From an uncultured Bacilli bacterium (GTDB lineage: Bacteria > Bacillota_I > Bacilli_A > RF39 > UBA660): a stretch of 64,000 nucleotides of DNA. Under the pieces are notes generated by a model. It was not told where the DNA came from. It did not search any database and saw only the letters and a list, made by a program, of their open reading frames with translations. Both the position numbers and the translations under genes were made by a program. The stretch's first letter is position 1, and each line of letters opens with the position of its first letter. Shown in pieces: positions 12,244 to 54,034 of the stretch. The DNA lies in assembly GCA_947626595.1 (NCBI GenBank), contig CANQST010000002.1, forward strand, positions 9,885-73,884. The letters run 5' to 3'.

Positions 12244-12244
12244 T

Positions 12245-28266: not shown

Positions 28267-30255
28267 ATGAATAATAGAAAACAAAAATATATTATAATTG
28301 GTGCATTATGTTTAGTGGTAACTTTACTATCTATAGGTTATGCTGTTTTGTCAGCTAACTTAAGAATTGATGGAACTGCTAAAGTATCAGGTGAGAAATG
28401 GAGTGTTGAGTTTGTAGAAAAACAAGCTAAAACTATTCCAAAAGGAAAAGCTACTTGTGATATAGGTACAATTCAAAATACTTCAGTAACAAACTTATCA
28501 GCTAAAGTAAAAGTACCAGGAGATAGTTGTACATTTACTATACCAGTAGAAAATACTGGAACTTTAGATGCCAGTTTAGTTGATGTAACTAATAGAGGTT
28601 TATCTTTATCATATGATGGTAATCCTGGTGATATAGATATAATAAGTAGTTATATAACTTACGATGTTAGATATGGTAGTACACAAATAAATAATGAAAC
28701 TAATTTTGAAGAAATTGATATTTTAGAACCAGGAGAAAGAGAGACAATAACTTTAAAAGTAGAGTTTAAAGAAGAAGCTACACAAATATCAAATGCAGTT
28801 GTAACAATAACAGGCTTAGATAGAACATTTAATTTTGAAAATAAGTTAGGTTCAAGTAGTACTAGTCCAACACCAGAAACTGTACCAGTTTACCATGATA
28901 CTAGTGGAGCTAATCAACCTGTTTTGAGTGATAATATGATACCAGTAGTATATGACGAAACAAGAAAAGAATGGGTAAAGCAAGATTTAGATAAAAGTTA
29001 TGATTATTCACAACAAGTATGGGCAAATGCTGTAACTGTAGTTGAAGATGGAACACAAACAAGAAGTTATTATAAGAAAGCAAAGGCTGGAACAGTAATA
29101 TCAATGAATGATATAAATACGATGTGGGTATGGATACCAAGATACTCATATACTATTAAGAGTGAAGATGGTGGAGATAACTACTTCGGAAAGGCAAGTT
29201 CTGATAATCTAAATCCATCACAGGCTCTACCAGGAGAGATAGATGTTAAATTTATTCCAGTAAGTGAAAATGATAGTGAAGGCTCAGCTCAATATACAGA
29301 AGGGGAAGCAAGTGGATGGTTTACGCCACCAGGATTTAAGTTTGGAGAGAAAGATTTATCGGGAGTGTGGATGGGAAAGTTTGAAACGGGTAATATAGGG
29401 GATTGCCAAGCGACAACTGGAGATGTAAATAATGGATGTGATTTAGAAACGTTAGTTCCACAAATTAAGCCAAATTTAACAAGTTTGAGGGGTATAAGAG
29501 TATCAACATTGGAATTAGTTTCTATAGGTTTAACTAAAGGTGGAAATATCTATGGTTTTGATAATACATATGATAGTCATGCTTCCAAAAATACAGAATG
29601 GGCATTAATTAGTTATTTAACTCAAAGTAAATATGGAAAGTATGGAAATTATTTATACAAAGGAGAAAATAAACAAGTGTATATGAATAATTATAGTGAA
29701 TATATGACAGGATGTTCTTCTGGAATACCAACAGCTGAAAGTTCAGATAAATGTACTTACGAGTATGACAATTTAACTTCTAATGGAGAAGGTACCGGCT
29801 ATTTGGGAGCGGGTGCTTCAACAACAGGAACAATATATGGGATATATGATGCAAATGGTGGAAGTTGGGAATATGTAATGTCTGTTTTTGCAAATCCAAG
29901 CAAATATTCTGGAAATACGCTAGAGTTAAATTCTGGATATAAAGGACTATTAACAGATGAAATTGAGTTTAGCGATAATGCTCGTTCTTGGTTAAGTGAT
30001 AAGTATTATGATTTTTATGCATCAGATGATGTAAAGACAGCGTGTAATGATACTTTATGCAAAGGTTATGCATTAAATGAGACGTCTGGATGGTATGGTG
30101 ATAGAAAGAATATGGTTCACAATATTTATCCTTGGATGGATCGTGGTGGATACCAACGAAAAAATGATGGGACATCTGGGGTGTTTGCATATATTAATGG
30201 AGAAGGAAGCTCTTCAAATTACCGTTCTTTCCGTATCGTCCTAACCCCACAATAA
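28267..30255 (+). CDS. surface paralog-family protein (N-type I, C-type A)
   Basis: The first ~300 aa are ~95% identical to the 52049 paralog. The C-domain carries the conserved blocks and ends ...FRIVLTPQ. Confidence 0.8.
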   Translation: MNNRKQKYIIIGALCLVVTLLSIGYAVLSANLRIDGTAKVSGEKWSVEFVEKQAKTIPKGKATCDIGTIQNTSVTNLSAKVKVPGDSCTFTIPVENTGTLDASLVDVTNRGLSLSYDGNPGDIDIISSYITYDVRYGSTQINNETNFEEIDILEPGERETITLKVEFKEEATQISNAVVTITGLDRTFNFENKLGSSSTSPTPETVPVYHDTSGANQPVLSDNMIPVVYDETRKEWVKQDLDKSYDYSQQVWANAVTVVEDGTQTRSYYKKAKAGTVISMNDINTMWVWIPRYSYTIKSEDGGDNYFGKASSDNLNPSQALPGEIDVKFIPVSENDSEGSAQYTEGEASGWFTPPGFKFGEKDLSGVWMGKFETGNIGDCQATTGDVNNGCDLETLVPQIKPNLTSLRGIRVSTLELVSIGLTKGGNIYGFDNTYDSHASKNTEWALISYLTQSKYGKYGNYLYKGENKQVYMNNYSEYMTGCSSGIPTAESSDKCTYEYDNLTSNGEGTGYLGAGASTTGTIYGIYDANGGSWEYVMSVFANPSKYSGNTLELNSGYKGLLTDEIEFSDNARSWLSDKYYDFYASDDVKTACNDTLCKGYALNETSGWYGDRKNMVHNIYPWMDRGGYQRKNDGTSGVFAYINGEGSSSNYRSFRIVLTPQ

Positions 30256-30330
30256 AAAAATAAAAAAAGTTATAAAAAAAAGATTAAAACCTCTTAATTT
30301 TTTCTAATAATAAAGTAGGAGGTATTTTTT

Positions 30331-32998: not shown

Positions 32999-33067
32999 AA
33001 AGTACTTTAAGCGTTGACTTTTAATATTGATTATAGTATACTAGTAGTGTACTTGAAGTAGTGCAAT

Positions 33068-33170
33068 ATTTAGAAAATGCTCTCGCTCCCAGATGGTGCG
33101 AGTAATAAATTATTCTGGGTGACAATGTTTCTCGCTCTCGGGTGGTGCGAGCAATAAATTATCCCGAGTG
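33068..33170. repeat. tandem pair of ~50-bp hairpin-bearing repeat units (same family as 61893-61990, opposite orientation)
   Basis: TCTCGCTCCCAGATGGTGCGAGTAATAAATTATTCTGGGTGA followed by CTCGCTCTCGGGTGGTGCGAGCAATAAATTATCCCGAGTGA. Each has a CTCGC..GCGAG stem and a CCCAGA..TCTGGG stem. Confidence 0.75.
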
Positions 33171-33245
33171 AAAATATTTTGAAAACTTCTATCTAGTGAT
33201 AGAGTTTTCTTTTTCAAAAAGTATAAAAAATATCACTTTGTTCTA

Positions 33246-36829: not shown

Positions 36830-36856
36830 TAAATAATATAGTTAGAGGTGAAGAAT

Positions 36857-37132: not shown

Positions 37133-37199
37133 AAAAATTACTATAAATATGGTATTATTTTATTGGTGATGATTAGTGAATTTTAATGAAAAGGAATAT

Positions 37200-38450
37200 A
37201 TGCCTAGGTTAATTGATAAAAACATAGATAGATATTTAGAAGTTTTTGGAGCTGTTTCTGTTGAGGGACCAAAATGGTGTGGTAAGACTTGGGCATCTTT
37301 GAGGCACGCTAAAAGTGTTGCTTATTTGGATGATGAAAGTACTAAACAAAGAGCTTTATTAGATTTGGAATTGATTTTAAATGATCAACAACCAGAACTT
37401 ATTGATGAGTGGCATTTAATTCCGGAAATTTGGGATAGAGTTAGAAGAAAGTGTGATTTAGATAGTAAAAAAGGAAAATATATTTTGACTTGTTCTACGC
37501 AACTTGATGATGAAAGAAGAAAACACATTTATCATTCTGGTGCTGGTAGAATTGGTAAACTTAAAATGTATCCTATGAGTTTGTATGAGTCTGGTGAGTC
37601 TACAGGAGATGCATCTTTGATGGATATGTTTAATGGTAAACAAAAAAATAAAAATGTTAAAATTCCTAGTTTAGAAGAAATAGCTAATTTAATAGTAAGA
37701 GGTGGATGGCCTGATAATATTAAAGTTTCTAAAGATAAAATCAATATAATTCCCAAGAGTTATATTGCCTCAGTCCTTGATAAAGATATTGATGATGGTA
37801 AAAAACGTGATAAAGAAAAAATGAATATGCTTATTAAATCACTCGCACGTAATGAGTCTACCATTGTTAGTAATCAGACGTTATTAACTGATATAGGTAC
37901 TTATAATAATAACGAAGAATTAATAGAAAGCAGAGTAACACTAAGTGATTATTTAGATGTTTTAGATAGACTTCACTTTACTGAAAATCAAAGTGCTTAT
38001 AGTGAGAATTATCGTTCAAGAGAAAGACTTGGCAAAACACCTAAAAGACATTTAATAGACCCATCTTTAGCTTGTGCCGCTTTAAATTTAACTAGTGATA
38101 AATTACTTAGTGATTTGAGAACTTTTGGTTTCTTGTTTGAGTCTTTAGTAGAAAGAGATTTAAGAATTTATATAGAATATTTAGATGGAAATATTTATCA
38201 TTTTAGAGATAATGTAAGTGGATTAGAAGTTGATAGTATACTGGAATTTCCGGGAGGAGATTATGCCGCAGTTGAAATAAAGTTAGGTTTTAACGCTATT
38301 GAAGAAGCTAAGGCTAATTTAGTAAAGTTTGCGAGTAATATGACTAAAAAACCTAAATTTATGTGTATTATTACTGGTAATTTTGATGCTGTAGCAAAAG
38401 ATCCAGATACGGGAATATATATTGTTCCTATAACAGCTTTAAAACCATAG
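37200..38450 (+). CDS. AAA+ ATPase, DUF4143-type (paralog of 7430-8701)
   Basis: GPKWCGKTW Walker A. PMSLYESGESTG and IDPSLA are shared with the other copy. Confidence 0.7.
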   Translation: MPRLIDKNIDRYLEVFGAVSVEGPKWCGKTWASLRHAKSVAYLDDESTKQRALLDLELILNDQQPELIDEWHLIPEIWDRVRRKCDLDSKKGKYILTCSTQLDDERRKHIYHSGAGRIGKLKMYPMSLYESGESTGDASLMDMFNGKQKNKNVKIPSLEEIANLIVRGGWPDNIKVSKDKINIIPKSYIASVLDKDIDDGKKRDKEKMNMLIKSLARNESTIVSNQTLLTDIGTYNNNEELIESRVTLSDYLDVLDRLHFTENQSAYSENYRSRERLGKTPKRHLIDPSLACAALNLTSDKLLSDLRTFGFLFESLVERDLRIYIEYLDGNIYHFRDNVSGLEVDSILEFPGGDYAAVEIKLGFNAIEEAKANLVKFASNMTKKPKFMCIITGNFDAVAKDPDTGIYIVPITALKP

Positions 38451-38577: not shown

Positions 38578-40479
38578 ATGGCTTTAAAATATGATGAGTC
38601 AACAATTAAAATATTAGAGGGCTTAGAGGCTGTTCGTAAAAGACCTGGTATGTATATTGGTTCTACTGATAAAAGAGGCTTACATCATTTAGTATGGGAA
38701 ATTGTCGATAATTCTATTGATGAAGCTATTAATGGTTTTGGAGATTATATTAAAATAATTCTTCATAAAGATAAATCAGTTAGTGTTGAAGACCATGGAA
38801 GAGGTTTACCTACAGGTATGCATGCCTCTGGAAGAACAACACCGGAAGTTATTTTTACGGTTTTACATGCTGGTGGTAAGTTTGAACAAGATGGTTATAA
38901 AGTTTCTGGTGGTTTGCATGGTGTTGGTTCAAGTGTTGTTAATGCTTTATCTAAGTGGTTAGAAGTAACTATTAAACATGATAGGGAAGAATATTATATT
39001 CGTTTTGAAAATGGTGGAGAAGTTAGTGTACCTTTAAAGAAAGTTGGAACGACTAATAAAACAGGTACAACAGTACGTTTTCTACCAGACGAAGAAATAT
39101 TTTCAACAACTAATTTTTCTTATACGACAATATGTGAGAGAATGCAAGAGTCAGCTTTTTTACTTAAAGGTATTACTATTGAAGTAATAGATGAAGAGGA
39201 TGAAAGACAAGCTAAATTCCATTATGAAAGGGGAATTGAAGAGTTTGTTGAAGAATTAAATAAAGGTAAAAATACTCTTCATAAGGTTTTACCTATTACT
39301 GGCTCTAAAGATAAAATAGAAGTAGAAATTGCTTTACAATATACTGATACTTATAATGAAAATATTGTTAGTTTTGTTAATAATGTAAAGACTATTGATG
39401 GTGGTTCACATGAGGTTGGTTTTAAAACAGCTTTAACGAGAGTTTTTAATGATTATGCTAAAAGCAATGGCTTTGTTAAAGAAAAAGATAAAGCTTTAGA
39501 AGGCAGTGATGTTCGTGAAGGTTTAACGGCAGTTATTAGTTTGAAAATACCAGAGAACATTTTACAGTTTGAAGGACAAACAAAGGGTAAACTCGGAACA
39601 CCAGCTGCTAAGAATGTTGTTGAAGCTATTACAACAGAGCAATTAAGGGTTTACTTAGAAGAAAATAAAACTATCGCAACAGAGATAATTAATAAAAGTT
39701 TACGCAGCAAAGTTGCGAGAGAAGCAGCTAGGAAGGCTCGTGAAGAGGCTCGTAAAGGAACGAAAAAGAATGCTAAAGAAAGGTCTCTTTCTGGTAAGTT
39801 AGCACCAGCTCAAACAAAAGATAAAACAAGAAATGAATTGTTCTTAGTTGAGGGAGATTCTGCAGGTGGTTCTGCTAAACAGGGAAGAGATAGAAAATAT
39901 CAAGCTATCTTGCCATTACGTGGTAAAGTTTTAAATACTGAAAAAACAAAAGAAGAAGATATTTTAAAAAATGAAGAGATTAATACAATGATTTATACTA
40001 TAGGAGCAGGATATGGTTCTAATTTTGATATCAAAGACTGCGAGTATAATAAGGTAATTATCATGAGCGATGCTGATGAAGATGGTGGTCATATTCAATG
40101 CTTATTACTTACTTTCTTTTATCGTTACATGAGACCTTTAATCGAAGATGGAAGACTTTTTGTAGCGTTACCACCACTTTTTAAAATTCAATGTGGTAAG
40201 GAAATAGAGTATGCTTATACTATTGAAGAAATGCAAGAAAAATCAAAAGGTAGAAAATGCGAAATTCAAAGATATAAAGGTCTTGGTGAAATGAATGCTG
40301 ATCAGTTATGTGAGACAACTATGAAACCAGGCAGTAGAACTTTAATTAGAGTTAATATTGAAGATGCTCAATTAGCAGAAAAAAGGGTGTCTATTCTTAT
40401 GGGAGATGATGTTCCACCTCGTAAGGAATGGATAGAAGAAAATGTTGAATTTTCTTTAGAAGATAGTTATGAAATATAG
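38578..40479 (+). CDS. parE: DNA topoisomerase IV subunit B
   Basis: GHKL ATPase and Toprim domains. N-terminus ...ILEGLEAVRKRPGMYIGSTD. Called parE rather than gyrB because the downstream partner has the ParC-type signature. RBS AGGAGTGA precedes ATG 38578. Confidence 0.75.
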   Translation: MALKYDESTIKILEGLEAVRKRPGMYIGSTDKRGLHHLVWEIVDNSIDEAINGFGDYIKIILHKDKSVSVEDHGRGLPTGMHASGRTTPEVIFTVLHAGGKFEQDGYKVSGGLHGVGSSVVNALSKWLEVTIKHDREEYYIRFENGGEVSVPLKKVGTTNKTGTTVRFLPDEEIFSTTNFSYTTICERMQESAFLLKGITIEVIDEEDERQAKFHYERGIEEFVEELNKGKNTLHKVLPITGSKDKIEVEIALQYTDTYNENIVSFVNNVKTIDGGSHEVGFKTALTRVFNDYAKSNGFVKEKDKALEGSDVREGLTAVISLKIPENILQFEGQTKGKLGTPAAKNVVEAITTEQLRVYLEENKTIATEIINKSLRSKVAREAARKAREEARKGTKKNAKERSLSGKLAPAQTKDKTRNELFLVEGDSAGGSAKQGRDRKYQAILPLRGKVLNTEKTKEEDILKNEEINTMIYTIGAGYGSNFDIKDCEYNKVIIMSDADEDGGHIQCLLLTFFYRYMRPLIEDGRLFVALPPLFKIQCGKEIEYAYTIEEMQEKSKGRKCEIQRYKGLGEMNADQLCETTMKPGSRTLIRVNIEDAQLAEKRVSILMGDDVPPRKEWIEENVEFSLEDSYEI

Positions 40480-40491
40480 GAGGCTGTAGTT

Positions 40492-43050: not shown

Positions 43051-43091
43051 GTGTAAATTGACAGGTTGTTTAGATTGTTGATATGAAAGAG

Positions 43092-43130
43092 AAAAAGAAA
43101 TGTTGATAAAAAAATATTTCTTTTCTTTTT
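43092..43130 (+). terminator. intrinsic terminator after parC
   Basis: AAAGAAAT-N14-ATTTCTTT hairpin followed by a T-run. Confidence 0.55.
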
Positions 43131-43150
43131 GCAATTTTCTTGACACCGTA

Positions 43151-43161
43151 GGGGGGGGGGG
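43151..43161. repeat. G11 homopolymeric tract in the promoter region of the paralog at 43274
   Basis: TTGACACCGTAGGGGGGGGGGGTAGTAAGATATTATTATAAAT. Eleven consecutive G in a ~28% GC genome. Confidence 0.9.
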
Positions 43162-43273
43162 TAGTAAGATATTATTATAAATAATTTTATTGTGGAAAAG
43201 TACTAGCCTGTTGCTGGTTTTATTTACAATTTCGGTAGCAACAAAATGGTACTGATTTAGGAATGGTGAGATA

Positions 43274-45238
43274 ATGGACGGTCGAAAACAAAAATTAATA
43301 ATTATAGGTGCTTTATGTTTAGTCGTAGTTTGTTTATCAATTGGATATGCAACTTTATCTTCAATGTTAAAGATAGATGGAACAGCTAATGTAGGAGGAG
43401 AGAAATGGAGTGTTGAGTTTGTAGAAAAACAAGTTAAAACTATTCCAAAAGGTAAAGCAACTTGTGAAATAGGAGATATCACTGGTACAGGTATTACTAA
43501 TATGTCTGCAGTATTTCAATTACCAGGTGACTCTTGTACATTTACAATACCAGTAGAAAATACAGGAACATTAGATGCTAGTCTAGTTGATGTAGAAGGA
43601 AAAGCTACACCTTTAAATTTAGTTGGAAGTCAAGAAGATATATCTAAATTAAATAATCAAATAACATATGATGTATCATATGGAGATACTAAAATAGATA
43701 ACCTAACTAGTTTCGATAATATTGACACTCTAGAACCAGGGGAAAGAGAAACAATAACATTAAAAGTAGAATTTAAATTAGAAGCAACTCAGATACCAAG
43801 TGAAGCAGTAACAATAACAGGATTAGATAGAACATTTAACTTCCAAAATAAAGTTGGTTCAAGTAGTGTTAGTCCAACACCTGATACAACTCCAGTGTTC
43901 AATGATACAAGTGGAGCGAATGCTCCAGTATTAAGTGGAGATATGATACCTGTTGTGTATGACGAAACAAAAAAGCAATGGGTAAAACAAGACTTAAATA
44001 AAAGTTATGATTATTCTCAACAAGTATGGGCAAATGCAGTAACTGTAGTTGAAGATGGAATTCAAACAAGAAGTTATTATAAAAAGGCTAAGGCGGGAAC
44101 AGTAATATCAATGAGTGATATAAACACAATGTGGGTATGGATACCAAGGTATAGTTATACTATCCAAGGTACATATGGAAAAGATGGAACAGGTGCTGCT
44201 ACTCCTGGAGAAATAGAAGTTAAGTTTGTTGGAGCAGGTACAACTGATACAGGAAGTGCAACATATACTGAAGGAGAAGCAACAGGATGGAGAACTAGTG
44301 GAGCTTTCAATTTTGGAGGAGAAGATAAAGCTGGTATATGGGTTTCAAAGTTTGAACCAACTGGTTCAGCTCCAGTTTGTACTACTGCAGATTGTGATAT
44401 AAGTAAAGTAACAGTAAAACCAGGTATTGCCTCAATTAGAAGTAAAACGGTAAGTGACTTCTTCTATATGGCAAGAAGTATGCAAAAAGTAAACAATCCA
44501 TATGGGTTCAATTCAATAAGTGCAGACTTGAATATGTTGAAGAATGATGAATGGGGAGCAGTGGCTTATCTATCACAAAGTAAATATGGAAAGTATGGAA
44601 ATAGTAATTATAGTGGGGCAAATAAAGAAGTTTACATGAATAATAATAGTAGTTATATAACTGGAACTAGTAGTGGCTTACCAAGTGCCAGTAGTTCTGC
44701 AGCTGTTGCCTATGCATATGATAATATGAAAGACTTAGGTGATGGAAAAGGATTAGCTGGACCAGGTGCTTCAACAACAGGAACGATATATGGAGCATAT
44801 GACATGAATGGTGGAGCGTGGGAATATGTAATGGGTGTGCTTGAGTATGATAGTCAAACAGAAAGTGCATACCCAGGAAGATTAACTACGTTTTCTTCTG
44901 GATTTAAAGGATTAAGCAATACTGGTGTAGAAATAGGAACAATTGATTTACCTGATTATAAGTATTATAATACTTATAAAAGTGCTAATCCGACATCAAG
45001 TACATGGTCTTCAGCATTAGCAGAAAAGGCATGTGATGGTGAAATATGTTATGGGCATGCTTTATCAGAAACAGCTGGTTGGTACGGGGATTACGCGAAC
45101 TTTGTGCCACGTTCTTCTCCTTGGGTTCTTCGCGGTGGCTACTATACTGATGGCTTGGGTGCTGGAGTGTTCGACGTAGGTAGTGCCTATGGCGGATCAC
45201 ACAACTATGTATCTTGCCGTCTCACTTTAGTCCCATAA
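43274..45238 (+). CDS. surface paralog-family protein (N-type II, C-type B)
   Basis: The N-terminal ~290 aa are ~90% identical to the 50056 paralog. The C-domain is of type B and ends ...CRLTLVP. The last ~170 bp are markedly GC-rich. Confidence 0.8.
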   Translation: MDGRKQKLIIIGALCLVVVCLSIGYATLSSMLKIDGTANVGGEKWSVEFVEKQVKTIPKGKATCEIGDITGTGITNMSAVFQLPGDSCTFTIPVENTGTLDASLVDVEGKATPLNLVGSQEDISKLNNQITYDVSYGDTKIDNLTSFDNIDTLEPGERETITLKVEFKLEATQIPSEAVTITGLDRTFNFQNKVGSSSVSPTPDTTPVFNDTSGANAPVLSGDMIPVVYDETKKQWVKQDLNKSYDYSQQVWANAVTVVEDGIQTRSYYKKAKAGTVISMSDINTMWVWIPRYSYTIQGTYGKDGTGAATPGEIEVKFVGAGTTDTGSATYTEGEATGWRTSGAFNFGGEDKAGIWVSKFEPTGSAPVCTTADCDISKVTVKPGIASIRSKTVSDFFYMARSMQKVNNPYGFNSISADLNMLKNDEWGAVAYLSQSKYGKYGNSNYSGANKEVYMNNNSSYITGTSSGLPSASSSAAVAYAYDNMKDLGDGKGLAGPGASTTGTIYGAYDMNGGAWEYVMGVLEYDSQTESAYPGRLTTFSSGFKGLSNTGVEIGTIDLPDYKYYNTYKSANPTSSTWSSALAEKACDGEICYGHALSETAGWYGDYANFVPRSSPWVLRGGYYTDGLGAGVFDVGSAYGGSHNYVSCRLTLVP

Positions 45239-45242
45239 CAAA

Positions 45243-45280
45243 AAAATAACTTTAGTTTTAATTCACTAGAGTTATTTTTC
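45243..45280. terminator. bidirectional terminator
   Basis: AAAATAACT-N18-AGTTATTTT hairpin followed by T-runs. Confidence 0.5.
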
Positions 45281-46183
45281 TTTTTCTAATAAACTTATAA
45301 TAGGTTTTAATGTTTTTTCTTTACCTTTTTCTTTTAATATAAAATTGTAAGTATTATCTATATCTTCACTAGTTATTTTAGTTTTATTATTTTCAAAACG
45401 ATTACTTAGATTTAATAATTCTTTATCTAATATTTTATCATTAATAATATTTTTTAATAAATACTTAGTAAAGTTAACAGCAAATTCATTGGCATACATT
45501 TCACTATAGAAATTATTATGATTTTCATTATAAAAATACTCATTAAAATATGAAACAACTATTTCTCTAAAAAGATTATTTTTTTCATTTTTATCTTTTT
45601 CTATGTAACGATAAATAGCGGTATGAGCGAATTCATGGCATAAAGAGAAAACTTCTTTAATAGCTAAAGTATAAAATAATTCTTTAGAAATTTTTTTACT
45701 AGAAGCATTAGTTATAATATCTCTTGGTACTTCTAAATACATTTTTTGATGGAAATAGTACACTTTATATATAAAGCTTTTCTTTTGTATTTCTATACTT
45801 TCAAAGGGTTTATTAAAACAATTCATTAGATAAATATATGATGCTTGAAATAATATATTTAAATCATCATAAGTAAATGTTTCTTTCTTTAGAAAATAAT
45901 TATTAAAATAAGTATTAAAGGCATCTATATCAATATATAATTCATTTATAAATCTTAATCTATTAATTAAAGTAAAACTTTCTATTTCATTTTTACTTAG
46001 ATTATTATTTTTAGCTTTTATATCTAAGTAGTCCATTAAATTTTCGAAGTTTTGTAATGTTTTCTTTTCTGTTAAAAATCTTCTAGTTTTATTAATTTTT
46101 AATATATTAGAAATTTTTTTAAGTATTTTTTCTTTATCTTTTATAGGTAAATTACAAAATTTATTAAAGTCTTTTATGTACAT
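45272..46183 (-). CDS. hypothetical protein with HExxH motif (putative metallopeptidase-like)
   Basis: 303 aa. LCHEFAHTAIY is a zincin HExxH motif. Confidence 0.45.
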   Translation of the reverse strand: MYIKDFNKFCNLPIKDKEKILKKISNILKINKTRRFLTEKKTLQNFENLMDYLDIKAKNNNLSKNEIESFTLINRLRFINELYIDIDAFNTYFNNYFLKKETFTYDDLNILFQASYIYLMNCFNKPFESIEIQKKSFIYKVYYFHQKMYLEVPRDIITNASSKKISKELFYTLAIKEVFSLCHEFAHTAIYRYIEKDKNEKNNLFREIVVSYFNEYFYNENHNNFYSEMYANEFAVNFTKYLLKNIINDKILDKELLNLSNRFENNKTKITSEDIDNTYNFILKEKGKEKTLKPIISLLEKEK

Positions 46184-46262
46184 AGTCCTTTCCCCCTTTA
46201 AAATTTCTACATATTATAACATATTTTTCTACTTAATTCAATAAAATTTAATGGTGATATAG

Positions 46263-46574
46263 ATGTCTAAAGAAACATTTAAGTTATTTGCAAGGAAGCA
46301 TCCAGAGTTAGCTAGTAGAGTTACGAGAAATGAAGTTAGTTGGCAGAAATTATATGAAATATATGATATATATGGAGAAGATAGTTCGGTATGGGATAGT
46401 TATTTTGCAAATGATAATTTATTTTCTTTTATTAAAAATATTGATGTTAAATCAGTTCAAAAGGGTATTTCTAATATAGAAAGAGTTATTAATTTACTTC
46501 AAGAGTTAGGCTTTTCTAATAAGAAAGAAGATTATTATGAACCAAGACCAATATATAAAAGATTTGAGGATTAA
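46263..46574 (+). CDS. hypothetical protein
   Basis: 103-aa ORF. Confidence 0.45.
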   Translation: MSKETFKLFARKHPELASRVTRNEVSWQKLYEIYDIYGEDSSVWDSYFANDNLFSFIKNIDVKSVQKGISNIERVINLLQELGFSNKKEDYYEPRPIYKRFED

Positions 46575-46576
46575 TT

Positions 46577-46792
46577 ATGGAGTTATATACAATTAATTAT
46601 ATAAAGAGTAATCCTTACATATATAATTATTTAAGAGAAAATTCTTTTCATTATAAGGAATTAAATAGAGATGGTAGTTATATTAGTAAGATAGAAGAGC
46701 TTGCGAAGGAAAAGTATAAGTTGAGATTTACTGATAAGTTAGATAGAGTTAGTAGTTATATTAATTTGATATTTTCATTAATAGATAAGTGA
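46577..46792 (+). CDS. hypothetical protein
   Basis: 71-aa ORF beginning 3 nt after the previous stop. Confidence 0.4.
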   Translation: MELYTINYIKSNPYIYNYLRENSFHYKELNRDGSYISKIEELAKEKYKLRFTDKLDRVSSYINLIFSLIDK

Positions 46793-46836
46793 TAAAAACT
46801 AATGACTTTTCTAAAGAAAATTGATACAATAAATAC

Positions 46837-47115
46837 ATGGAAGAGTTATATGAAAAGATTGACAATTTAATAGAAGTTTTGGAAGAAGAAAATATTGTTA
46901 AGGAGATAAAGGCTCTTAATAGTAAAGTATTAAAAGATAAAGAGTTACTTGCTTTAATAGATAATTATAAGATTTATAAAAATAATTTAAAAGAAATAGA
47001 GGAAAATAAGTTATTTCAAGAATATAAAGAGAAAGAGACTGATTTAAATATTTTGATATTACAAATAAATAATAAATTAAAAGAAATAACTAAAAAGGAT
47101 AAGTGTCATTTATGA
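46837..47115 (+). CDS. hypothetical coiled-coil protein (possibly YlbF/YmcA-like, given synteny with rsmD)
   Basis: 92-aa helical Lys/Glu-rich ORF immediately upstream of rsmD. Confidence 0.35.
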   Translation: MEELYEKIDNLIEVLEEENIVKEIKALNSKVLKDKELLALIDNYKIYKNNLKEIEENKLFQEYKEKETDLNILILQINNKLKEITKKDKCHL

Positions 47116-47642
47116 AAGTAATTAGTGGTATATATAAAGGGAGAAATTTAGAAGGATTTGATATTATAGGGACTAGGCCTACTATGGATAGGGTAAAGGA
47201 GAGTTTATTTGCTACTATTCAAGATTATATTAGAGATAGTGTAGTATTAGATTTGTTTGCTGGTAGTGGTAATTTAGGGATAGAAGCTTTAAGTAATGGA
47301 GCTAGTTATGTATACTTTGTAGATAATAATAAGAAAGCAATTAATACTATAAAAATTAATTTAAGTAATTTAAATATTGATAAAGCTTTAGTAATTAAAA
47401 GTGATTTTAGAGAGGTACTTAGGAAGAAAGAAAAGTTTGATATTATATTTTTAGATCCTCCTTATAAGAGTGATTATATAGAAGAAAGTATTAATTTAAT
47501 AGAAGAAAATGATTTAGTAAATAAAAATGGTATTGTTGTATGTGAAAGTAGTGATATAGATAAAATTAATAGTAATAAGTATAAAATTATTAAAGAAAAA
47601 AAATATGGTGATAAATGGGTAGTTATTCTTAAAAATATATGA
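47112..47642 (+). CDS. rsmD: 16S rRNA (guanine966-N2)-methyltransferase
   Basis: LDLFAGSGNLGIEALS and FLDPPY are class I MTase motifs typical of RsmD. About 177 aa. Confidence 0.75.
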   Translation: MKVISGIYKGRNLEGFDIIGTRPTMDRVKESLFATIQDYIRDSVVLDLFAGSGNLGIEALSNGASYVYFVDNNKKAINTIKINLSNLNIDKALVIKSDFREVLRKKEKFDIIFLDPPYKSDYIEESINLIEENDLVNKNGIVVCESSDIDKINSNKYKIIKEKKYGDKWVVILKNI

Positions 47643-47673
47643 TACAATTTATATAGAATTGGTGGTTAGAAAT

Positions 47674-49530
47674 ATGAAGGTAAAGAATAGTAAAGGGTTT
47701 GCTGTTTCAACATTATTGTATGGTTTATCAATAATGGGTTTTTTAATTGTCATTTTACTTATGAGTATTGTTTCTTCTAATAGAGTAAATACTAAGAATT
47801 TTGTTAATCAAATAGAGGATGATTTAAATAGATATAGTTTAACTGAGGTTAGTTTTTCTTCTAAAGATAGTGGTGATTTGGCTCAAGAATATTTTGTTCC
47901 TTATGGGCAAGAGGGTTGGTATAAAATAGAATTATGGGGTGCTGGTGGTGGAGGTGCTACTGGTGGTAAGGGCGCTTATACATCTGGTTTGATATATTTG
48001 GATGCTAATACACATTTATATTTCTATATAGGTAAAAAGGGTGGAACATCGGCAGCTGGTGTTAATAATGGTGGTCCAGCTAGTGGTGGCTACTATGGTG
48101 GTGGTGGAGAGACTGATGTAAGGTTGGAATCAGGAAATAGCAATGACGATAGATCCATGAAAACTAGAATAATGGTTGCGGCCGGAGGCGGAGGCGCTAA
48201 GGGTAGTACGAAAGGTGGCAATGGTGGAGATTTGCAAGGTTACAAAGGTGATGGCACGGCTGGTAGTGCAACACAAAATGCTGGCAATCTGCCAACGGTT
48301 TTATCGAGTGGCGGAGGTGGTGGCTTTCGTAATGGAGGTGCAGGTGAAGGTGGCAGTTCTTATATATCGGGTTATGCTGGGGGTAGCTCTTATGTTTTAA
48401 ATCCTCAAAAGGATCAACTTGGTGAATGGGATTGGGATTATAAAGGAGAAGATTTTCAACTTGTTCCTGGTAAATTAACAATTCATTATTTGTATCCGGT
48501 TTATAAAGAGGTAGGAGAGGAAGCTGTTCTTGATAGATATGACCCTCCACAACATGCTTTTAGGTTTGTTAATGGTTTAATGATACCGGGAGTTAATGAT
48601 GGAGATGGTAAAGCTAATATAGAAAGAGTTGATTTAAAAGGCGCAACAGAATTAGCTAAGAAAGATAATATAAAGCTTAGTAGAATTACGAGAATTGTTG
48701 ATTGTGTTGATGGTAATAGTGGAACTTGGAAAGAAATACAAGCTGTTTCTAATGGAGAGAATGTTATTAAAAGTAGTGGTACTGTAACGGGCTCTGGTTT
48801 GGCTAACGGCAATAATCTTAAGGATGGTTTATTAAATACAGAAGCTAGTATTGCTGGTAGTGTGGCTGAGAAATGTATAACAGTAACTTTCTCTACGCCA
48901 CAAGATTTAGACGAGATAGCTGTTTGGCATAAAGTAGGAAATATCGCTAAACATAATTTAGAAGTTTGTGACCAAAGTGGTGGGTGTTACAGTTTGAGTA
49001 ATAGAACGGCAGTTGATAATTCACCAGTTGTAGAGACAAGTAATGGACTTCATTATTCGGCATATCGAGGAAATGAAACGCAAAATATTGCGAATGGTAC
49101 TTATTTAATTATTCCAGTAAGCAATGCTTCAATGGTATTTACAACGGGAAATGCAGCTTTGTCTGACCATGACATGATGCTTAAACTTGCTAAGTATGAA
49201 GCTAATAGATATCAGATGTGGGATATTCAAAATGTAGGTGATAACAAATATACAATAGTTGAAACACAAAATCATTATTCTTTACAAGTTGATACAGTTG
49301 TTGGAAATTCAGAGGGAGATGTAATTAATGCTCGAGCGAGATTAGTTGATAGTGATAGAGAAAGATGGCATATTACACCGACTGGTAATGGAACATATAT
49401 TATATCGTCGTTCTTGGATCCAGAAAATAAATGTTGTAGATTAGCTTATTCAGCTGGTAATATACGAACAGCTATGAATAGTAATACTACTTTAAATACT
49501 AAATTTTATCTTATAAATGTTGATTATTAG
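47674..49530 (+). CDS. secreted multi-domain protein: prepilin-like N-terminus, glycine-rich domain, ricin-B (beta-trefoil) lectin C-terminus
   Basis: MKVKNSKGFAVSTLLYGLSIMGFLIVILL (KGF + hydrophobic helix, no Glu5). Then ~230 aa of GGxGG repeats (GAGGGGATGGKGAY...GGGGGFRNGGAGEGG). The C-terminus has QxW-type repeats (RYQMWDIQ, RERWHI). RBS GGTGG precedes ATG 47674. Confidence 0.6.
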   Translation: MKVKNSKGFAVSTLLYGLSIMGFLIVILLMSIVSSNRVNTKNFVNQIEDDLNRYSLTEVSFSSKDSGDLAQEYFVPYGQEGWYKIELWGAGGGGATGGKGAYTSGLIYLDANTHLYFYIGKKGGTSAAGVNNGGPASGGYYGGGGETDVRLESGNSNDDRSMKTRIMVAAGGGGAKGSTKGGNGGDLQGYKGDGTAGSATQNAGNLPTVLSSGGGGGFRNGGAGEGGSSYISGYAGGSSYVLNPQKDQLGEWDWDYKGEDFQLVPGKLTIHYLYPVYKEVGEEAVLDRYDPPQHAFRFVNGLMIPGVNDGDGKANIERVDLKGATELAKKDNIKLSRITRIVDCVDGNSGTWKEIQAVSNGENVIKSSGTVTGSGLANGNNLKDGLLNTEASIAGSVAEKCITVTFSTPQDLDEIAVWHKVGNIAKHNLEVCDQSGGCYSLSNRTAVDNSPVVETSNGLHYSAYRGNETQNIANGTYLIIPVSNASMVFTTGNAALSDHDMMLKLAKYEANRYQMWDIQNVGDNKYTIVETQNHYSLQVDTVVGNSEGDVINARARLVDSDRERWHITPTGNGTYIISSFLDPENKCCRLAYSAGNIRTAMNSNTTLNTKFYLINVDY

Positions 49531-49550
49531 AAAAAGAAAAATTCGGCTAG

Positions 49551-49799
49551 TTATTGTCGAATTTTTTCTTCTTCAGTAATTCCTTTTGGATATGGACTTT
49601 TACAATCAGTTCGCTCTAGTATGTAATCTACAGAAACATTATAGATATCAGCTATCTTATCTAGTAGATCTATTGGTATAGTTCTTTTACCGTTTTCATA
49701 TAATCCGTACACTTGTCTTCTTATATGTAATTCTTCAGCAATCTGCTTTTGTAATAAGTCATTATCTTCTCTTAAATTTCTTAATCTCTTTAGGTACAT
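49551..49799 (-). CDS. XRE-family HTH transcriptional regulator
   Basis: 82 aa. LLQKQIAEELHIRRQVYGLYENGKRTIPIDLL is a Cro/C1 HTH. Divergent from the paralog at 50056. Confidence 0.7.
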   Translation of the reverse strand: MYLKRLRNLREDNDLLQKQIAEELHIRRQVYGLYENGKRTIPIDLLDKIADIYNVSVDYILERTDCKSPYPKGITEEEKIRQ

Positions 49800-49827
49800 T
49801 TTACACCTCTTTAACTTATTTTCTCAC

Positions 49828-49900
49828 GCAATTAATAAATTGCATTGACAAGCAACCATTTGCTTGCTAAAATGTTTATCGAAGAAACTAAATGGTTGCA
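49828..49900 (+). promoter_or_regulatory. promoter plus nested inverted repeats in the XRE / paralog-50056 intergenic region
   Basis: TTGACA (49845-50), 17 bp, TAAAAT. Palindrome GCAATTAATAAATTGC (49828-43). CAAGCAA-acca-TTTGCTTG lies in the spacer. 10-bp inverted repeat GCAACCATTT (49852-61) / AAATGGTTGC (49890-99). Confidence 0.5.
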
Positions 49901-50055
49901 TTTTTTCTTCAATAACACTAAAAAAGGTTAAAAAATATCAAAAATATGAGTGCTAACAGAGTTTAGCTTAGTTTTTTAACCTTTGCAGCAGCAAATCACT
50001 ACTAATGTAGTATTAAAATAAATAATATGTAAACAATAATTGTAGGTGGAGTATT

Positions 50056-52017
50056 ATGGATAGTAGAAAGCAGAAACTAATTTTAATTGGTGTTTTATGT
50101 TTAGTTGTAGTTTGTTTATCAATTGGATATGCGATGCTATCTTCAATGTTAAGGATAGATGGAACAGCTAATGTTGGAGGAGAAAAGTGGAGTGTTGAGT
50201 TTGTAGAGAAACAGGCAAAGACTATTCCTAAGGGAAAGGCAACTTGTGAAATAGGAAATATCACTGGTACAAGTATTACTAATATGTCAGCAGTATTTCA
50301 ATTACCAGGAGACTCTTGTACATTTACTATACCAGTAGAAAATACTGGAACATTAGATGCCAGTTTAGTTGATGTAGATGGTAAAGCTACACCTTTAAAT
50401 TTAGTTGGTAGTCAAGAAGATATAGCTAAATTAAATAGCCAAATAACATATGATGTTCAATATGGAAATACAAAAATAGATAACTTAACTACTTTTGATA
50501 ATATTGATACTTTAGAACCAGGTGAAAGGGAGACTATAACTTTAAAAGTAGAGTTTAGGGAAGAAGCAACACAAATACCAGCAGCCGCTGTTACAATAGA
50601 AGGATTAGATAGAACATTTAACTTTCAAAATAAAACTAATTCAAGTAGTACTAATCCATCTCCAACTACAACACCAGTTTACCACGATAATAGTGGTGCA
50701 AACAAGCCAATTTTGAGTGAAAATATGATACCTGTAGTTTATGACGAGACAAAAAGAGAGTGGGTAAAGCAAGATTTAGATAAAAGTTATGATTATTCAC
50801 AACAAGTATGGGCAAATGCAGTAACTGTAGTTGAAGAGTATCAAAATAAGACTAGAAATTATTATAAACTAGCAAAACCAGGTACAGTAATACCGATGGA
50901 TGCTATAAACACAATGTGGGTATGGATACCAAGATATAGCTATACTATAAAGAGTGAAGATGGAAATAACTATTATGGCAAAGCAAGTTCTGATAATGAA
51001 AATCCAACCCAAGCTTTACCAGGAGAAATAGATGTTAAGTTTATACCAGTAAGTGAAAATGATACTGAAGGTAGTGCACAATATACAGGAGAAGAAGCAA
51101 GTGGATGGTTTACCCCACCAGGTTTTACTTTTGGAGATAAAGATTTATCAGGAGTTTGGATAGGAAAGTTTGAAACAGGTTCAATTGATGGAACAAGTCC
51201 AGGAGATGTAGAAACTGATAACTTAGTGGCAATAAAACCAAATATAACATCTTGGAGAAATATTAGAGTATCTACATTAGAACTTGTGTCTATGGGATTA
51301 ACTAAAGATGGAAATATTTATGGTTTTGATCAAAATACTTATGATGCACATGCTTCGAAAAATAGTGAATGGGCGTTAATGTCATATTTAACACAAAGTA
51401 AATATGGTAAATATGGCAATTCTTTATATACAGGTGAAAACAAACAAGTATATATGAATAACTATGGTGGATATATGACAGGATGTTCTTCAGGTAAGGC
51501 GACAGCAGGTAATGAAACAACTTGTGAAAATACTTATGATGTAATGGTAAATCGTCAAAATGGTCAAGGATATGCTGGAGCAGGTGCTTCAAGTACTGGA
51601 AATATTTATGGTATATATGATGCTTCAGGAGGAGCATGGGAATATACAATGGGTGTACTAAACAAGATGTCAGGAAATACACAAAGTTGGAATTCAGGTT
51701 ATCCTGGCTTACTTACTGATGGGACTAGTTTTACAGGAAATCGAGAATGGCCAGCTGATAAATATGTAGATGTTTATATGTCAGAAGATACCAAAATTGC
51801 CTGTAAAGGAACTTCATGTAATGGCCATGCTTTAAATGAAACATCAGGATATTATGGTGATTATTATGTTATGGTAGACACTGCAAAAATGTGGCTAGTT
51901 AGAGGAGGCGGTAGCCGTTATAGTAATTCTGGTGTAGGAATCTTCTCATTTGGAAATAATTATGGTAATGCGTATTCTGATAACTCATTTCGTATTGTTT
52001 TAGCACCAAATAATTAA
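50056..52017 (+). CDS. surface paralog-family protein (N-type II, C-type A)
   Basis: RBS AGGTGGAG. The N-terminal half matches 43274. The C-domain has the conserved type-A blocks and ends ...FRIVLAPNN. Confidence 0.8.
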   Translation: MDSRKQKLILIGVLCLVVVCLSIGYAMLSSMLRIDGTANVGGEKWSVEFVEKQAKTIPKGKATCEIGNITGTSITNMSAVFQLPGDSCTFTIPVENTGTLDASLVDVDGKATPLNLVGSQEDIAKLNSQITYDVQYGNTKIDNLTTFDNIDTLEPGERETITLKVEFREEATQIPAAAVTIEGLDRTFNFQNKTNSSSTNPSPTTTPVYHDNSGANKPILSENMIPVVYDETKREWVKQDLDKSYDYSQQVWANAVTVVEEYQNKTRNYYKLAKPGTVIPMDAINTMWVWIPRYSYTIKSEDGNNYYGKASSDNENPTQALPGEIDVKFIPVSENDTEGSAQYTGEEASGWFTPPGFTFGDKDLSGVWIGKFETGSIDGTSPGDVETDNLVAIKPNITSWRNIRVSTLELVSMGLTKDGNIYGFDQNTYDAHASKNSEWALMSYLTQSKYGKYGNSLYTGENKQVYMNNYGGYMTGCSSGKATAGNETTCENTYDVMVNRQNGQGYAGAGASSTGNIYGIYDASGGAWEYTMGVLNKMSGNTQSWNSGYPGLLTDGTSFTGNREWPADKYVDVYMSEDTKIACKGTSCNGHALNETSGYYGDYYVMVDTAKMWLVRGGGSRYSNSGVGIFSFGNNYGNAYSDNSFRIVLAPNN

Positions 52018-52048
52018 TTTAGTAGATAATTAAGGAGGTAATGCGATT

Positions 52049-54034
52049 ATGAATAATAGAAAACAAAAGTTAATAATTATAGGTGCATTATGCTTAGTGG
52101 TAACACTTTTATCAATAGGTTACGCTATTTTGTCATCTAACTTAAGGATTAATGGAACTGCAAAAGTATCAGGAGAAAAATGGAGTGTTGAGTTTGTAGA
52201 AAAACAAGCTAAAACTATTCCAAAAGGAAAAGCTAATTGTGATATAGGTACAATTCAAAATACTTCAGTAACAAACTTATCAGCTAAAGTAAAAGTACCA
52301 GGAGATAGTTGTACATTTACTATACCAGTAGAAAATACTGGAACATTAGATGCAAGTTTAGTTGATGTAACTAATAGAGGTTTATCTTTATCGTATGATG
52401 GTGATCCGGGTGATATAGACATCATAAGTAGTTATATAACTTATGATGTAAGATATGGTAATACAGAAATAAATAATGAAACTTCTTTTGATACTATTGA
52501 TATTCTAGAACCAGGAGAAAGAGAGACAATAACATTAAGAGTTGAGTTTAAAGAAGAAGCAACTCAAATACCAAATGATGTAGTAACAATAACAGGATTA
52601 GATAGGACATTTAACTTTGAAAATAAAGTTGGTTCAAGTAGTGAAACTTCACCTACACCAGAAACTGTACCAGTTTACCACGATACTAGTGGAGCTAATC
52701 AACCTGTTTTAAGTGATAATATGATACCAGTAGTATATGACGAAACAAGAAAAGAATGGGTAAAACAAGACTTAGATAAAAGTTATGATTATAGTAGTCA
52801 AGTTTGGGCCAATGCAGTAACTGTAGTTGAAGACGGAACCCAAACTAGAAGTTATTATAAGAAAGCCAAAGCTGGAACAGTAATATCAATGAGTGATATA
52901 AATACAATGTGGGTATGGATACCAAGATATTCATATACAATAAAACAACCATATGGAAAAGAAAGTTCTGATAATCTAAGTCCTTCGCAAGAATTACCAG
53001 GAGAAATAGATGTTAAGTTTATTCCAGCAAGTGAAAATGATAGTGAAGGTTCAGCTCAATATACTGAGGGAGAGGCAAGTGGATGGTTTACCCCACCAGG
53101 ATTTAAGTTTGGTGACAAAGATTTATCAGGAATATGGATAGGAAAATTTGAAAGCAGTAATATTGAGAACTGTTCTGCTACTAATAATGATGTAGATAAT
53201 GGCTGTGATTTAGAAAATTTAACCGTTCAAATTAAACCTAATGTAACAAGTTGGAGGGGAATAAGAGTATCAACATTAGAATTAGTTTCTATGGGACTAA
53301 CAAAAGATGAAAATATTTATGGCTTTGATAATACATATGATAGTCATGCAATTAAGAATACCGAGTGGGCACTTATGGCATATTTAACTCAAAGTAAATA
53401 TGGTAAGTATGGAAATGTTTTATACACTGGAAATAATAAGCAAGTGTATATGAATAATTATAGTGGCTTTGTAACAGGATGTTCTTCAGGACTTCCAATT
53501 GCTGATACTTCTGATACGTGTACTTATCGCTATGATAATCTGACTAAGCAGGATAATATAGGATATTTAGGTGCAGGCTCTTCCGTGACAGGAAATATTT
53601 ATGGTATATATGATACTAATGGAGGTGCTTGGGAATATGTAATGGGAATATATCAAAATCAAGACGTAAGGTATACGGGATATTCTACCACAAGTAATTC
53701 CGGTTATACTGGGCGTACTGGTATTAATGATGAACAGTTTACTGGAAGAGAGTGGCAGAATGATAAATATTATGATTTTTATTCAACAACAAATGTATTA
53801 ACAGCTTGTATGCTATCAGGAAATGGAAATGCACCTTGCAAGGGACACGCTCTTAATGAATTAGCAGGATGGTATGGAGATTATTCAAGTATGGTTCAGA
53901 AGACTGATCCTACAATAGTACGAAGTGGTAATTATAATTATGGTAGTAATGCAGGTAGTTTTAATTTTAATCACTCACGTAGTTACGCAATTTGGGATGT
54001 TTCATTTCGTCAAGTTTTAACTCCCAATAATTGA
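52049..54034 (+). CDS. surface paralog-family protein (N-type I, C-type A)
   Basis: RBS AAGGAGG. The N-terminal half matches 28267. The MWVWIPRYSYTIKQPYGK segment is ~90% identical to 22932. Ends ...FRQVLTPNN. Confidence 0.8.
   Translation: MNNRKQKLIIIGALCLVVTLLSIGYAILSSNLRINGTAKVSGEKWSVEFVEKQAKTIPKGKANCDIGTIQNTSVTNLSAKVKVPGDSCTFTIPVENTGTLDASLVDVTNRGLSLSYDGDPGDIDIISSYITYDVRYGNTEINNETSFDTIDILEPGERETITLRVEFKEEATQIPNDVVTITGLDRTFNFENKVGSSSETSPTPETVPVYHDTSGANQPVLSDNMIPVVYDETRKEWVKQDLDKSYDYSSQVWANAVTVVEDGTQTRSYYKKAKAGTVISMSDINTMWVWIPRYSYTIKQPYGKESSDNLSPSQELPGEIDVKFIPASENDSEGSAQYTEGEASGWFTPPGFKFGDKDLSGIWIGKFESSNIENCSATNNDVDNGCDLENLTVQIKPNVTSWRGIRVSTLELVSMGLTKDENIYGFDNTYDSHAIKNTEWALMAYLTQSKYGKYGNVLYTGNNKQVYMNNYSGFVTGCSSGLPIADTSDTCTYRYDNLTKQDNIGYLGAGSSVTGNIYGIYDTNGGAWEYVMGIYQNQDVRYTGYSTTSNSGYTGRTGINDEQFTGREWQNDKYYDFYSTTNVLTACMLSGNGNAPCKGHALNELAGWYGDYSSMVQKTDPTIVRSGNYNYGSNAGSFNFNHSRSYAIWDVSFRQVLTPNN

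Follow-up and report, generated by a model that had tools for sequence, protein, structure and literature searches.

Locus organisation and the seven paralogs

The stretch of DNA analysed here, referred to below as the window, comprises 64,000 nucleotides of contig CANQST010000002.1 (positions 9,885 to 73,884 of the forward strand) from assembly GCA_947626595.1, which represents an uncultured Bacilli bacterium assigned to the order RF39. The window is AT-rich, with a G+C content of approximately 28% and a strongly positive GC skew, and it contains seven related open reading frames (ORFs), all on the forward strand, beginning at positions 4717, 22932, 25628, 28267, 43274, 50056 and 52049 and named here by these starts. 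These seven paralogs were confirmed to be mosaics whose segments have incongruent histories, a pattern far beyond what would be expected by chance. They are interpreted, with a probability of roughly 80%, as members of a large lineage-specific family of surface or secreted binding proteins in which mosaics arise through homologous recombination between paralogs, with a diversity-generating retroelement (DGR) and promoter poly-G tracts as additional layers of variation.

All seven paralogs are intact, full-length ORFs of 653-875 amino acids (aa), each with a start codon and a Shine-Dalgarno sequence, and they differ in the combination of modules that they carry. The solitary gene g4717 (4717-6723), the product of which is identical to the database protein P0079, combines a type-I N module with a type-A C domain and has no LamG insert. 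In the tandem trio g22932-g25628-g28267, the first gene (22932-25559) has a type-I N module, a LamG insert at approximately 23856-24326 and a type-A C domain; the second (25628-28228) has a divergent type-II N module, a LamG insert at approximately 26492-26968 and a C domain of type B, the type found in DGR targets; and the third (28267-30255), whose product was modelled with AlphaFold2, has a type-IIa N module and a type-A C domain. The second solitary gene, g43274 (43274-45238), joins a type-IIb N module to a type-B C domain, and the tandem pair consists of g50056 (50056-52017), with a type-IIb N module and a type-A C domain, followed by g52049 (52049-54034), with a type-IIa N module and a type-A C domain. 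Housekeeping genes lie among the paralogs, including parE/parC-like topoisomerase genes, comEA/comEC-like genes, a recD2-like helicase gene and gltX.

Mosaic structure of the paralogs

Identities calculated from a MAFFT alignment upheld most of a preliminary description of this DNA, made from the sequence alone, in which N- and C-terminal modules were said to be exchanged in blocks. The products of g28267 and g52049, described as near-identical at the N-terminus and then diverging, share 94.3% of residues over the first 298 aa, up to the motif YSYTIK, and 65.0% thereafter. The N module shared by g43274 and g50056 is 86.6% identical over 217 aa, falling to 44% after YSYTIK, and from the motif GWRT onward g43274 resembles g25628 (58%) rather than g50056 (43%), as expected of a type-B C domain; the N modules of g43274 and g25628 are only 42% identical. 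Similarly, g22932 shares its N module with g4717 at 56% compared with 16% for g25628, while the LamG insert (Pfam Laminin_G_3) is common to g22932 and g25628 alone among the seven genes, at 55%. The segment MWVW...GKFE of g22932 had been reported as closely similar to g52049 and not to the gene's own neighbours. The first part of this claim stands, at 89% identity to g52049 against 62% to both g25628 and g4717, but the segment is also approximately 80% identical to g28267 and g50056, and because g28267 belongs to the tandem trio headed by g22932, the second part is valid for g25628 alone. Over the C1 segment, the nearest window paralog of g22932 is likewise g52049. Sliding nucleotide windows reproduced the identity steps of the protein comparison, with divergence that was not uniform along the genes, and placed the tandem neighbours g22932 and g25628 at 83-85% nucleotide identity around the end of the LamG insert.

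These steps were reflected in statistical tests of recombination. The observed value in the pairwise homoplasy index (PHI) test lay 28 standard deviations below the permutation mean (z = -28) and was reached in none of 1000 permutations. Neighbour-joining trees of the first 140 alignment columns grouped {43274,50056}, {28267,52049} and {4717,22932}, each at 100% bootstrap, while the C-terminal segments C2 and C4 grouped {25628,43274} at 100% and 99.5%; as the splits in the N-terminal and C-terminal parts are both strongly supported but incompatible, they cannot share one tree. Triplet MaxChi analysis gave chi2 values of 39-200 in eight of nine triplets, unmatched in 2000 permutations (p<0.0005), and a value of 17 (p = 0.002) in the ninth, so that the sharp breakpoints of the preliminary description are real. 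Synonymous divergence (dS) between g28267 and g52049 rises from 0.28 in the N1 segment to 1.1-2.4 in the last two, C-terminal, segments, and since dS varies along the genes, constraint on the protein is by itself insufficient to account for the identity steps.

The simplest alternative is a history of duplication only, in which the N-terminal part is constrained and the C-terminal part diverges rapidly under positive selection. Rate heterogeneity of this kind is real, in that an alignment of 120 homologs showed the C-terminal tail to be the most variable part of the protein and the hinge blocks to be strongly constrained. However, rates cannot alter topology, and so do not explain why g43274 should group with g50056 in N1 and with g25628 in C2 and C4, nor why one LamG insert should be common to genes of differing N types and differing C types. 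The variation of dS along the genes and the PHI result point the same way, and congruent segment trees with a uniform dS for each pair were looked for and not found. This alternative is therefore given next to no credence.

Position of the breakpoints

The MaxChi breakpoints fell into four clusters, at alignment columns 524-541, 598-600, 271-275 and 161-163. The first corresponds to window positions 52921-52930 in g52049, 24446-24483 in g22932 and 50888-50893 in g50056, and lies in the block encoding INTMWVWIPRYSYTIK. Conserved DNA at the breakpoints, which the preliminary description had put forward as something to look for, was found here: over 30 nucleotides (nt) this block has a mean pairwise nucleotide identity of 94%, the highest in the alignment. 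The second cluster, at positions 44287-44291 in g43274, separates a 5' part like that of g50056 from a type-B 3' part like that of g25628, and coincides with GWRT.

Other strongly conserved DNA blocks encode PVLSDNMIPV, QVWANAVTV (which adjoins the insertion site of LamG), PGEIDVKFI and SQSKYGKYGN, and the blocks are 80-94% identical across types. Among the 120 homologs, column entropy was lowest in the blocks around INTMWVWIPRYSYTIK, SQSKYGKYGN and IYGIYD and highest over the last 20 residues (641-660). The break at YSYTIK falls within the lectin-like domain of the AlphaFold2 model, away from any domain border, and the crossover sites seem to be set by similarity of the DNA rather than by the architecture of the protein.

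The wider family and paralogs at other loci

More than 1986 homologs of the family are present in the database, all of them unnamed, and PF13385, the family of the LamG insert, is the sole precomputed Pfam entry given for them. Among the 75 loci listed from species-representative genomes, all lie in metagenome-assembled genomes (MAGs) of uncultured Bacilli (one of them labelled Clostridia), mostly from the rabbit gut, and at least 31 of these loci belong to the single MAG CANQIL01. Uncultured Bacilli of the rabbit gut hold dozens of family copies per genome. Limited literature searches brought up no description of the family, of its combination of mechanisms or of any DGR target having a poly-G promoter, which is weak evidence of novelty.

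For each of the seven window genes, the nearest homolog shifts region by region, and the last 115 aa of the window proteins have at most 62% identity to any homolog. Paralogs at other loci are found in the same three samples at similar coverage (7-9.5x). Gene g43274 shares with P0013 an exact tract of 248 nt, within approximately 600 nt at 94-100% identity, flanked by 61-76% identity on the 5' side and approximately 46-69% toward the 3' end, except for a second stretch at 89-94%. An exact tract of 129 nt is shared by g50056 and P0008. At the protein level, on which this case rests, g52049 and P0009 are identical at 295 of the first 299 aa (98.7%) and then fall to approximately 45%, with P0009 passing to a type-B core and afterwards back to a type-A tail; an exact look-up of P0001 and P0009 returned no contig. 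Taken together, the sequence comparisons support recent exchange between window genes and other-locus paralogs of the same population.

The blocks could also have been exchanged mainly between genomes, by homologous recombination with DNA entering from other family-bearing strains or species. Many related MAGs of the same habitat contain family members, some regional nearest neighbours (such as P0031, P0048 and P0026) are not tied to the samples of the window, and comEA-like and comEC-like competence genes are present in the window. However, the most recent tracts link to paralogs of the same samples at matching coverage, and tandem neighbours such as g22932 and g25628 share segments. Exchange mainly between genomes is considered somewhat unlikely, and it is compatible with, rather than exclusive of, recombination between paralogs within the genome.

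Protein architecture and fold

The AlphaFold2 model of the g28267 product (pLDDT 90.7) consists of a hydrophobic N-terminal helix (residues 4-31), a beta-sandwich (approximately residues 47-191) and a large, lectin-like C-terminal domain. Sequence searches gave no identification of the C domain, whether with whole proteins against Pfam and NCBIfam, with isolated C domains against Pfam or by a profile search of PDB sequences; neither Pfam FGE-sulfatase nor any PDB chain was matched at the sequence level, and the sole PDB profile match was a non-significant one to the pilin 6w8x (E 0.95). A Foldseek search with the model returned the Thermus variable protein TaqVP (5vf4, E 1.2e-10, probability 1.00), TvpA (2y3c, E 8e-3) and two proteins like formylglycine-generating enzyme (FGE), PvdO and PorK. 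On this structural comparison the C-terminal domain of the predicted model is assigned to the C-type-lectin/FGE fold of DGR variable proteins.

The architecture of the family is accordingly an N-terminal hydrophobic helix, a stalk formed by a beta-sandwich that comes in two unrelated types, a C-type-lectin/FGE-like domain of types A and B and a hypervariable extreme C-terminus, with a LamG domain inserted within the C-type-lectin/FGE-like domain in some members. From the model, the N-terminal part could be a pilin-like or fibre-forming stalk. Weak structural or sequence matches of the helix and beta-sandwich (window 28267-28360 and equivalents; model residues 4-191) were to the Sulfolobus AAP pilin 8q30, the TasA fibre 8aur and the pilin 6w8x, none of them significant. 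A surface location would fit this architecture, in which the helix may be either cleaved off or retained as an anchor, with variation in ligand or antigen as the presumed selective reason.

A diversity-generating retroelement acting on the family

A complete DGR cassette occupies positions 10001-14359 of the contig L083, where P0013, the paralog that shares the 248-nt tract with g43274, immediately precedes genes for bAvd and for an RVT_1 reverse transcriptase (RT). Its parts are a variable repeat (VR) at 11856-11961, a template repeat (TR) at 12124-12229, a MutS_I+bAvd fusion gene at 12606-13319 and the RVT_1 gene at 13304-14359; a G+C-rich hairpin at approximately 12005-12040 lies between VR and TR. 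The last 106 nt of P0013 are repeated as the TR, and all 18 mismatches between the two fall at TR adenines. P0121, a second database version of P0013, differs from it at just 10 residues, every one within the VR, and this confinement indicates that the DGR has been active in the population. DGR-linked family members were also found in other MAGs, at L010 6968-11338 (15/15 mismatches at adenines) and L049 629-4323 (21/22), and all DGR targets seen (P0013 and those of L010 and L049) have a type-B C domain. At L015 8488-9823, an RT match in two fragments, which may be frameshifted, was found with no TR.

The window itself contains no RT or Avd, as judged by tblastn with the L083 RT and Avd and by the absence of RVT or Avd domains from ten further window ORFs, and a search of the seven 3' ends against the window revealed no second, TR-like copy of any of them and no partial gene copies. 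Compared with the L083 TR, each of the seven tails has 22-41 non-adenine mismatches or gaps, and action of a DGR on the window genes from this known TR was rejected for all seven. Targeting in trans by a DGR located on a different contig of that genome is conceivable. The tail of g43274 (45131-45235, forward strand), comprising the last 35 codons, has 18% A and 53% G+C compared with 36% A in the whole gene and is homologous to the VR of P0013 in length and position, with no match to the P0013 TR; the G+C content of the genome is 28%. Three assemblies and the cluster variant of the gene all show this tail unchanged. By its composition and position, it resembles a variable region that is no longer in use or that depends on a template located elsewhere.

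These findings also bear on whether the differences between the paralogs might have been made by adenine-directed DGR hypermutation rather than by recombination. In favour of this are the DGR variable-protein fold of the family, the active-looking DGR target among its paralogs and the A-poor, G+C-rich, VR-like tail of g43274. Changes made by a DGR are, however, limited to approximately 106-139 nt at the 3' end, whereas the mosaic blocks run the length of the gene, and the missing RT, Avd and TR, the non-adenine differences and the invariance of the g43274 tail all argue in the same direction, making hypermutation an extremely improbable source of the mosaics.

Promoters, poly-G tracts and divergent regulators

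Upstream of g43274, a promoter-like element on the forward strand (43140-43170) consists of TTGACA (43140-43145), a run of eleven G residues (G11; 43151-43161) and TAAGAT (43165-43170), with a 19-nt spacer, these and the other promoter elements described here being consensus matches only. The G11 tract is the only run of seven or more G or C residues in the 64-kb window. The promoter of P0013 is near-identical, with G10 and an 18-nt spacer. Across related loci totalling 1.05 Mb, 49 runs of G8-G11 were found, all on the gene strand, and 40 of the 49 are followed within approximately 120 nt by an ORF of the family, compared with an estimated chance expectation of approximately 0.006 G10 runs in 1.05 Mb. 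The usual context is TTGACA-N9-G10-TATGAT or TATAAT, as at L008 9943 and L083 9938, and tract lengths from G8 to G11 occur among paralogs and lineages. Poly-G loci of the MAG CANQIL01 include L008, L009, L011-L013, L015, L016, L018, L022-L025, L027, L037, L068 and L071.

A poly-G tract in the spacer between the -35 and -10 elements corresponds to the architecture of promoter-spacer phase variation, and g43274 is thus a candidate for a slipped-strand switch; the recurrence of such tracts suggests that family genes may be expressed in a phase-variable manner. No coding or 5' simple-sequence repeats were found in the seven genes. The family genes of the window form four transcription units, one of which has the poly-G promoter, and the three without a tract have divergent HTH_3 or ribbon-helix-helix-like genes. 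The unit g50056-g52049 has a near-consensus promoter-like site at 49845-49873 on the forward strand (TTGACA-17-TAAAAT with TG) and an XRE/HTH_3 regulator gene divergent from g50056 at 49551-49799 on the reverse strand. Also on the reverse strand, a second XRE/HTH_3 regulator gene (4362-4595) is divergent from g4717, and a small ribbon-helix-helix-like ORF (22639-22812), with a weak Pfam match, is divergent from g22932.

Other genes in the window include one at 47659-49530, between two family loci and conserved in the independent contigs L078 and L079, that encodes an ALK/LTK-type glycine-rich domain and a ricin-B-like lectin domain in a product with a prepilin-like N-terminus (MKVKNSKGFAVSTLLYGL...). 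Genes for AAA_14/DUF4143 ATPases recur near family loci, at window positions 7430-8752 (reverse strand) and 37176-38450 (forward strand) and at L082 10319-11596, and a BRO-N domain gene is located at 18116-19012 (reverse strand).

Age of the exchanges and reliability of the assemblies

The contigs L078 and L079, which are independent assemblies from other samples, match window positions 40056-52191 at 99.98% and contain g43274 and g50056 complete, the former 100% identical to the window copy and the latter 99.9% identical (2 nt differ). The only two single-nucleotide polymorphisms across these 12 kb, at 50344 and 50361, are therefore both in g50056, 17 nt apart, and the variant allele is the state of P0008, a paralog with 96-100% identity to g50056 over this region. 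The pair could reflect a brief patch of conversion or, alternatively, a bubble in the assembly. The preliminary description had also proposed comparing strains for different combinations of modules; over 40056-52191 no such difference was seen, with L078 and L079 carrying the same mosaics, and as the mosaics are reproduced between samples, switching appears infrequent on the timescale of strains.

Several observations weigh against the interpretation of a family that diversifies by recombination between paralogs together with DGR and poly-G layers. Between window paralogs, exact matches extend to at most 58 nt and dS is nowhere below 0.28, so that exchanges within the window are not recent, and, given the identical mosaics of L078 and L079, ongoing exchange is supported solely through paralogs on other contigs. 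The placement of these other-locus paralogs in the same genome as the window is itself deduced from their co-occurrence and similar coverage. The length of the G11 tract is identical in the window and in L078, the two assemblies that cover the g43274 promoter. All of the data are short-read metagenome assemblies, in which L078 and L079 both end at window position 52191 and L079 begins at 44289, within the breakpoint of g43274 at 44287-44291, placing contig breaks inside shared modules, and the join between the N and C modules of the full-length g52049 is recorded on one contig. The ends of L080 and L081 likewise lie inside shared N modules or inside the tract identical between g43274 and P0013. 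The family systematically fragments short-read metagenome assemblies.

The contig breaks and the single record of g52049 are what could be expected if an assembler had joined paralogs or strains across shared repeats of a metagenome contig and thereby created chimeric genes. However, g43274 and g50056 were reproduced in the independent assemblies, the products of g28267, g25628, g22932 and g4717 are each recorded on 3-4 contigs, and exact repeats between window paralogs do not exceed 58 nt. A wrong join would, moreover, merely swap the tails of real genes, and could produce neither the pattern of similar N-terminal and dissimilar C-terminal parts nor blocks at 75-90% identity. Chimeric assembly is accordingly assigned only a minute chance of having generated the mosaics.

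The preliminary description had likened the mosaics to the products of cassette-based antigenic variation, in which a single expressed copy is rewritten unidirectionally from silent donors, as in pilE/pilS, vlsE or mgpB. The genes are indeed mosaic with sharp breakpoints, and the two polymorphisms in g50056, being in the P0008 state, could be a short conversion patch. The analogy was nevertheless not supported: none of the seven copies is disrupted, each having a start codon and a ribosome-binding site, and together they make up four transcription units provided with promoter-like elements or with divergent regulators; truncated or promoterless copies, and hence silent donors, are absent from the 64-kb window; the blocks exchanged within the window have a dS of at least 0.28; and the independent assemblies are 99.98% identical. 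The two-nucleotide patch lies in a region near-identical between paralogs and could be an assembly bubble artefact. A programmed cassette system is therefore judged very unlikely, although the DGR on one paralog and the poly-G tracts of family promoters lend support to a dedicated system of variation in the wider sense. The other mechanism named in the preliminary description, recombination or gene conversion between the paralogs, is by comparison borne out by the incongruent segment trees, the dS gradient, the location of breakpoints in conserved blocks and the near-identical tracts shared with other-locus paralogs. Reassortment at the level of module types is old (dS 0.3 to >1) and some tracts are recent, and the exchanges thus span a long period.

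Proposed mechanism

Under the favoured interpretation, homologous recombination between paralogs would begin in the short DNA blocks that are 80-94% identical across types. The copies are co-oriented on one replichore, with the essential genes parE, parC and gltX between dispersed copies, and because a reciprocal crossover would delete essential genes, non-reciprocal gene conversion would be the sole survivable mode between distant copies. Gene conversion is thus suggested as the exact mode of recombination, with unequal crossing-over presumably an additional option within the tandem trio and within the pair. Type-B C domains additionally serve as the substrate of a DGR at another locus of the same population, and the poly-G tract in the -35/-10 spacer of many family promoters is predicted to give on/off or graded expression through strand slippage.

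A more integrated arrangement, regarded as rather doubtful at present, would have the three layers act as one system, in which poly-G slippage selects the paralogs, out of dozens with the lectin fold, that are expressed, one RT-linked type-B copy makes new binding tips by DGR mutagenesis, and gene conversion spreads stalks, lectin cores and tips once diversified by the DGR between the RT-linked copy and the copies without such a link. If this were true, diversity made by the retroelement would be archived and recombined across the gene array. A candidate example of such archived DGR diversity is g43274, with its type-B domain, an A-depleted, G+C-rich, VR-like tail with no RT nearby, a P0013-like poly-G promoter and the 248-nt exact tract.

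Relation to known systems and implications

Recombining paralog families, DGR hypermutation and homopolymer promoter switches are each already known singly. The Mtd protein of Bordetella phage, TvpA of Treponema denticola and TaqVP of Thermus aquaticus are DGR variable proteins with the C-type-lectin/FGE fold. The window family has the same fold, as identified by structure search, as well as a hypervariable stretch at the extreme C-terminus, and in its paralog P0013 a canonical TR/VR pair accompanies Avd and RT, the two repeats mismatching only at adenines and the VR varying from sample to sample. DGR targets occur within larger paralog families whose other members have no VR (PMC3521204). Unlike the DGR variable proteins, the seven window genes have no nearby RT, Avd or TR, and their diversity is mostly modular reassortment of the whole gene rather than adenine mutagenesis.

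The opa genes of Neisseria, babA/babB and other hop genes of Helicobacter pylori and the tpr genes of Treponema pallidum encode full-length surface paralogs that evolve by inter-paralog recombination. The window family resembles them in having several intact, dispersed copies with reassorted segments and incongruent trees, and in having copies that appear to be separately expressed, with expression putatively tied to simple-sequence repeats; it differs in its unrelated fold, its Gram-positive-type organism, the location of its poly-G tract in the promoter spacer rather than in a coding repeat, and the coupling of one arm of the family to a retroelement. Cassette antigenic variation is known from pilE/pilS of Neisseria, vlsE of Borrelia, mgpB/MgPar of Mycoplasma genitalium and msp2 of Anaplasma. 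The likeness lies in mosaic genes for (putative) surface proteins formed by segmental gene conversion between related sequences, but the window family lacks both a sole site of expression and truncated, silent donors, and nothing indicates that switching is frequent. Homopolymers in promoter spacers underlie phase variation of porA (poly-G) and opc (poly-C) in Neisseria meningitidis and of vlp (poly-A) in Mycoplasma hyorhinis, and the family shares with these a homopolymer of 8-11 nt between TTGACA and a -10-like hexamer, repeated before many of its members. Changes in tract length that alter expression are, for the window family, a prediction from the position of the tract, and within the window the tract is confined to one of the four transcription units, the other three having divergent HTH or ribbon-helix-helix regulators.

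Signatures of three variation mechanisms converge on a single unannotated protein family, to which a visible share of the genomes in a lineage of uncultured gut Bacilli is devoted. A role as variable binding or antigenic surface proteins would fit the DGR and poly-G marks. If confirmed, the family would offer a natural case for the interplay of retroelement-made diversity and paralog recombination, a new sequence family of DGR-type lectin-fold binding proteins missed by Pfam and NCBIfam, and a practical warning that its loci break short-read assemblies. The convergence points to selection that is both strong and changing, and that concerns the binding partners of these commensals or the agents recognising them, for example host IgA, glycans or phages.

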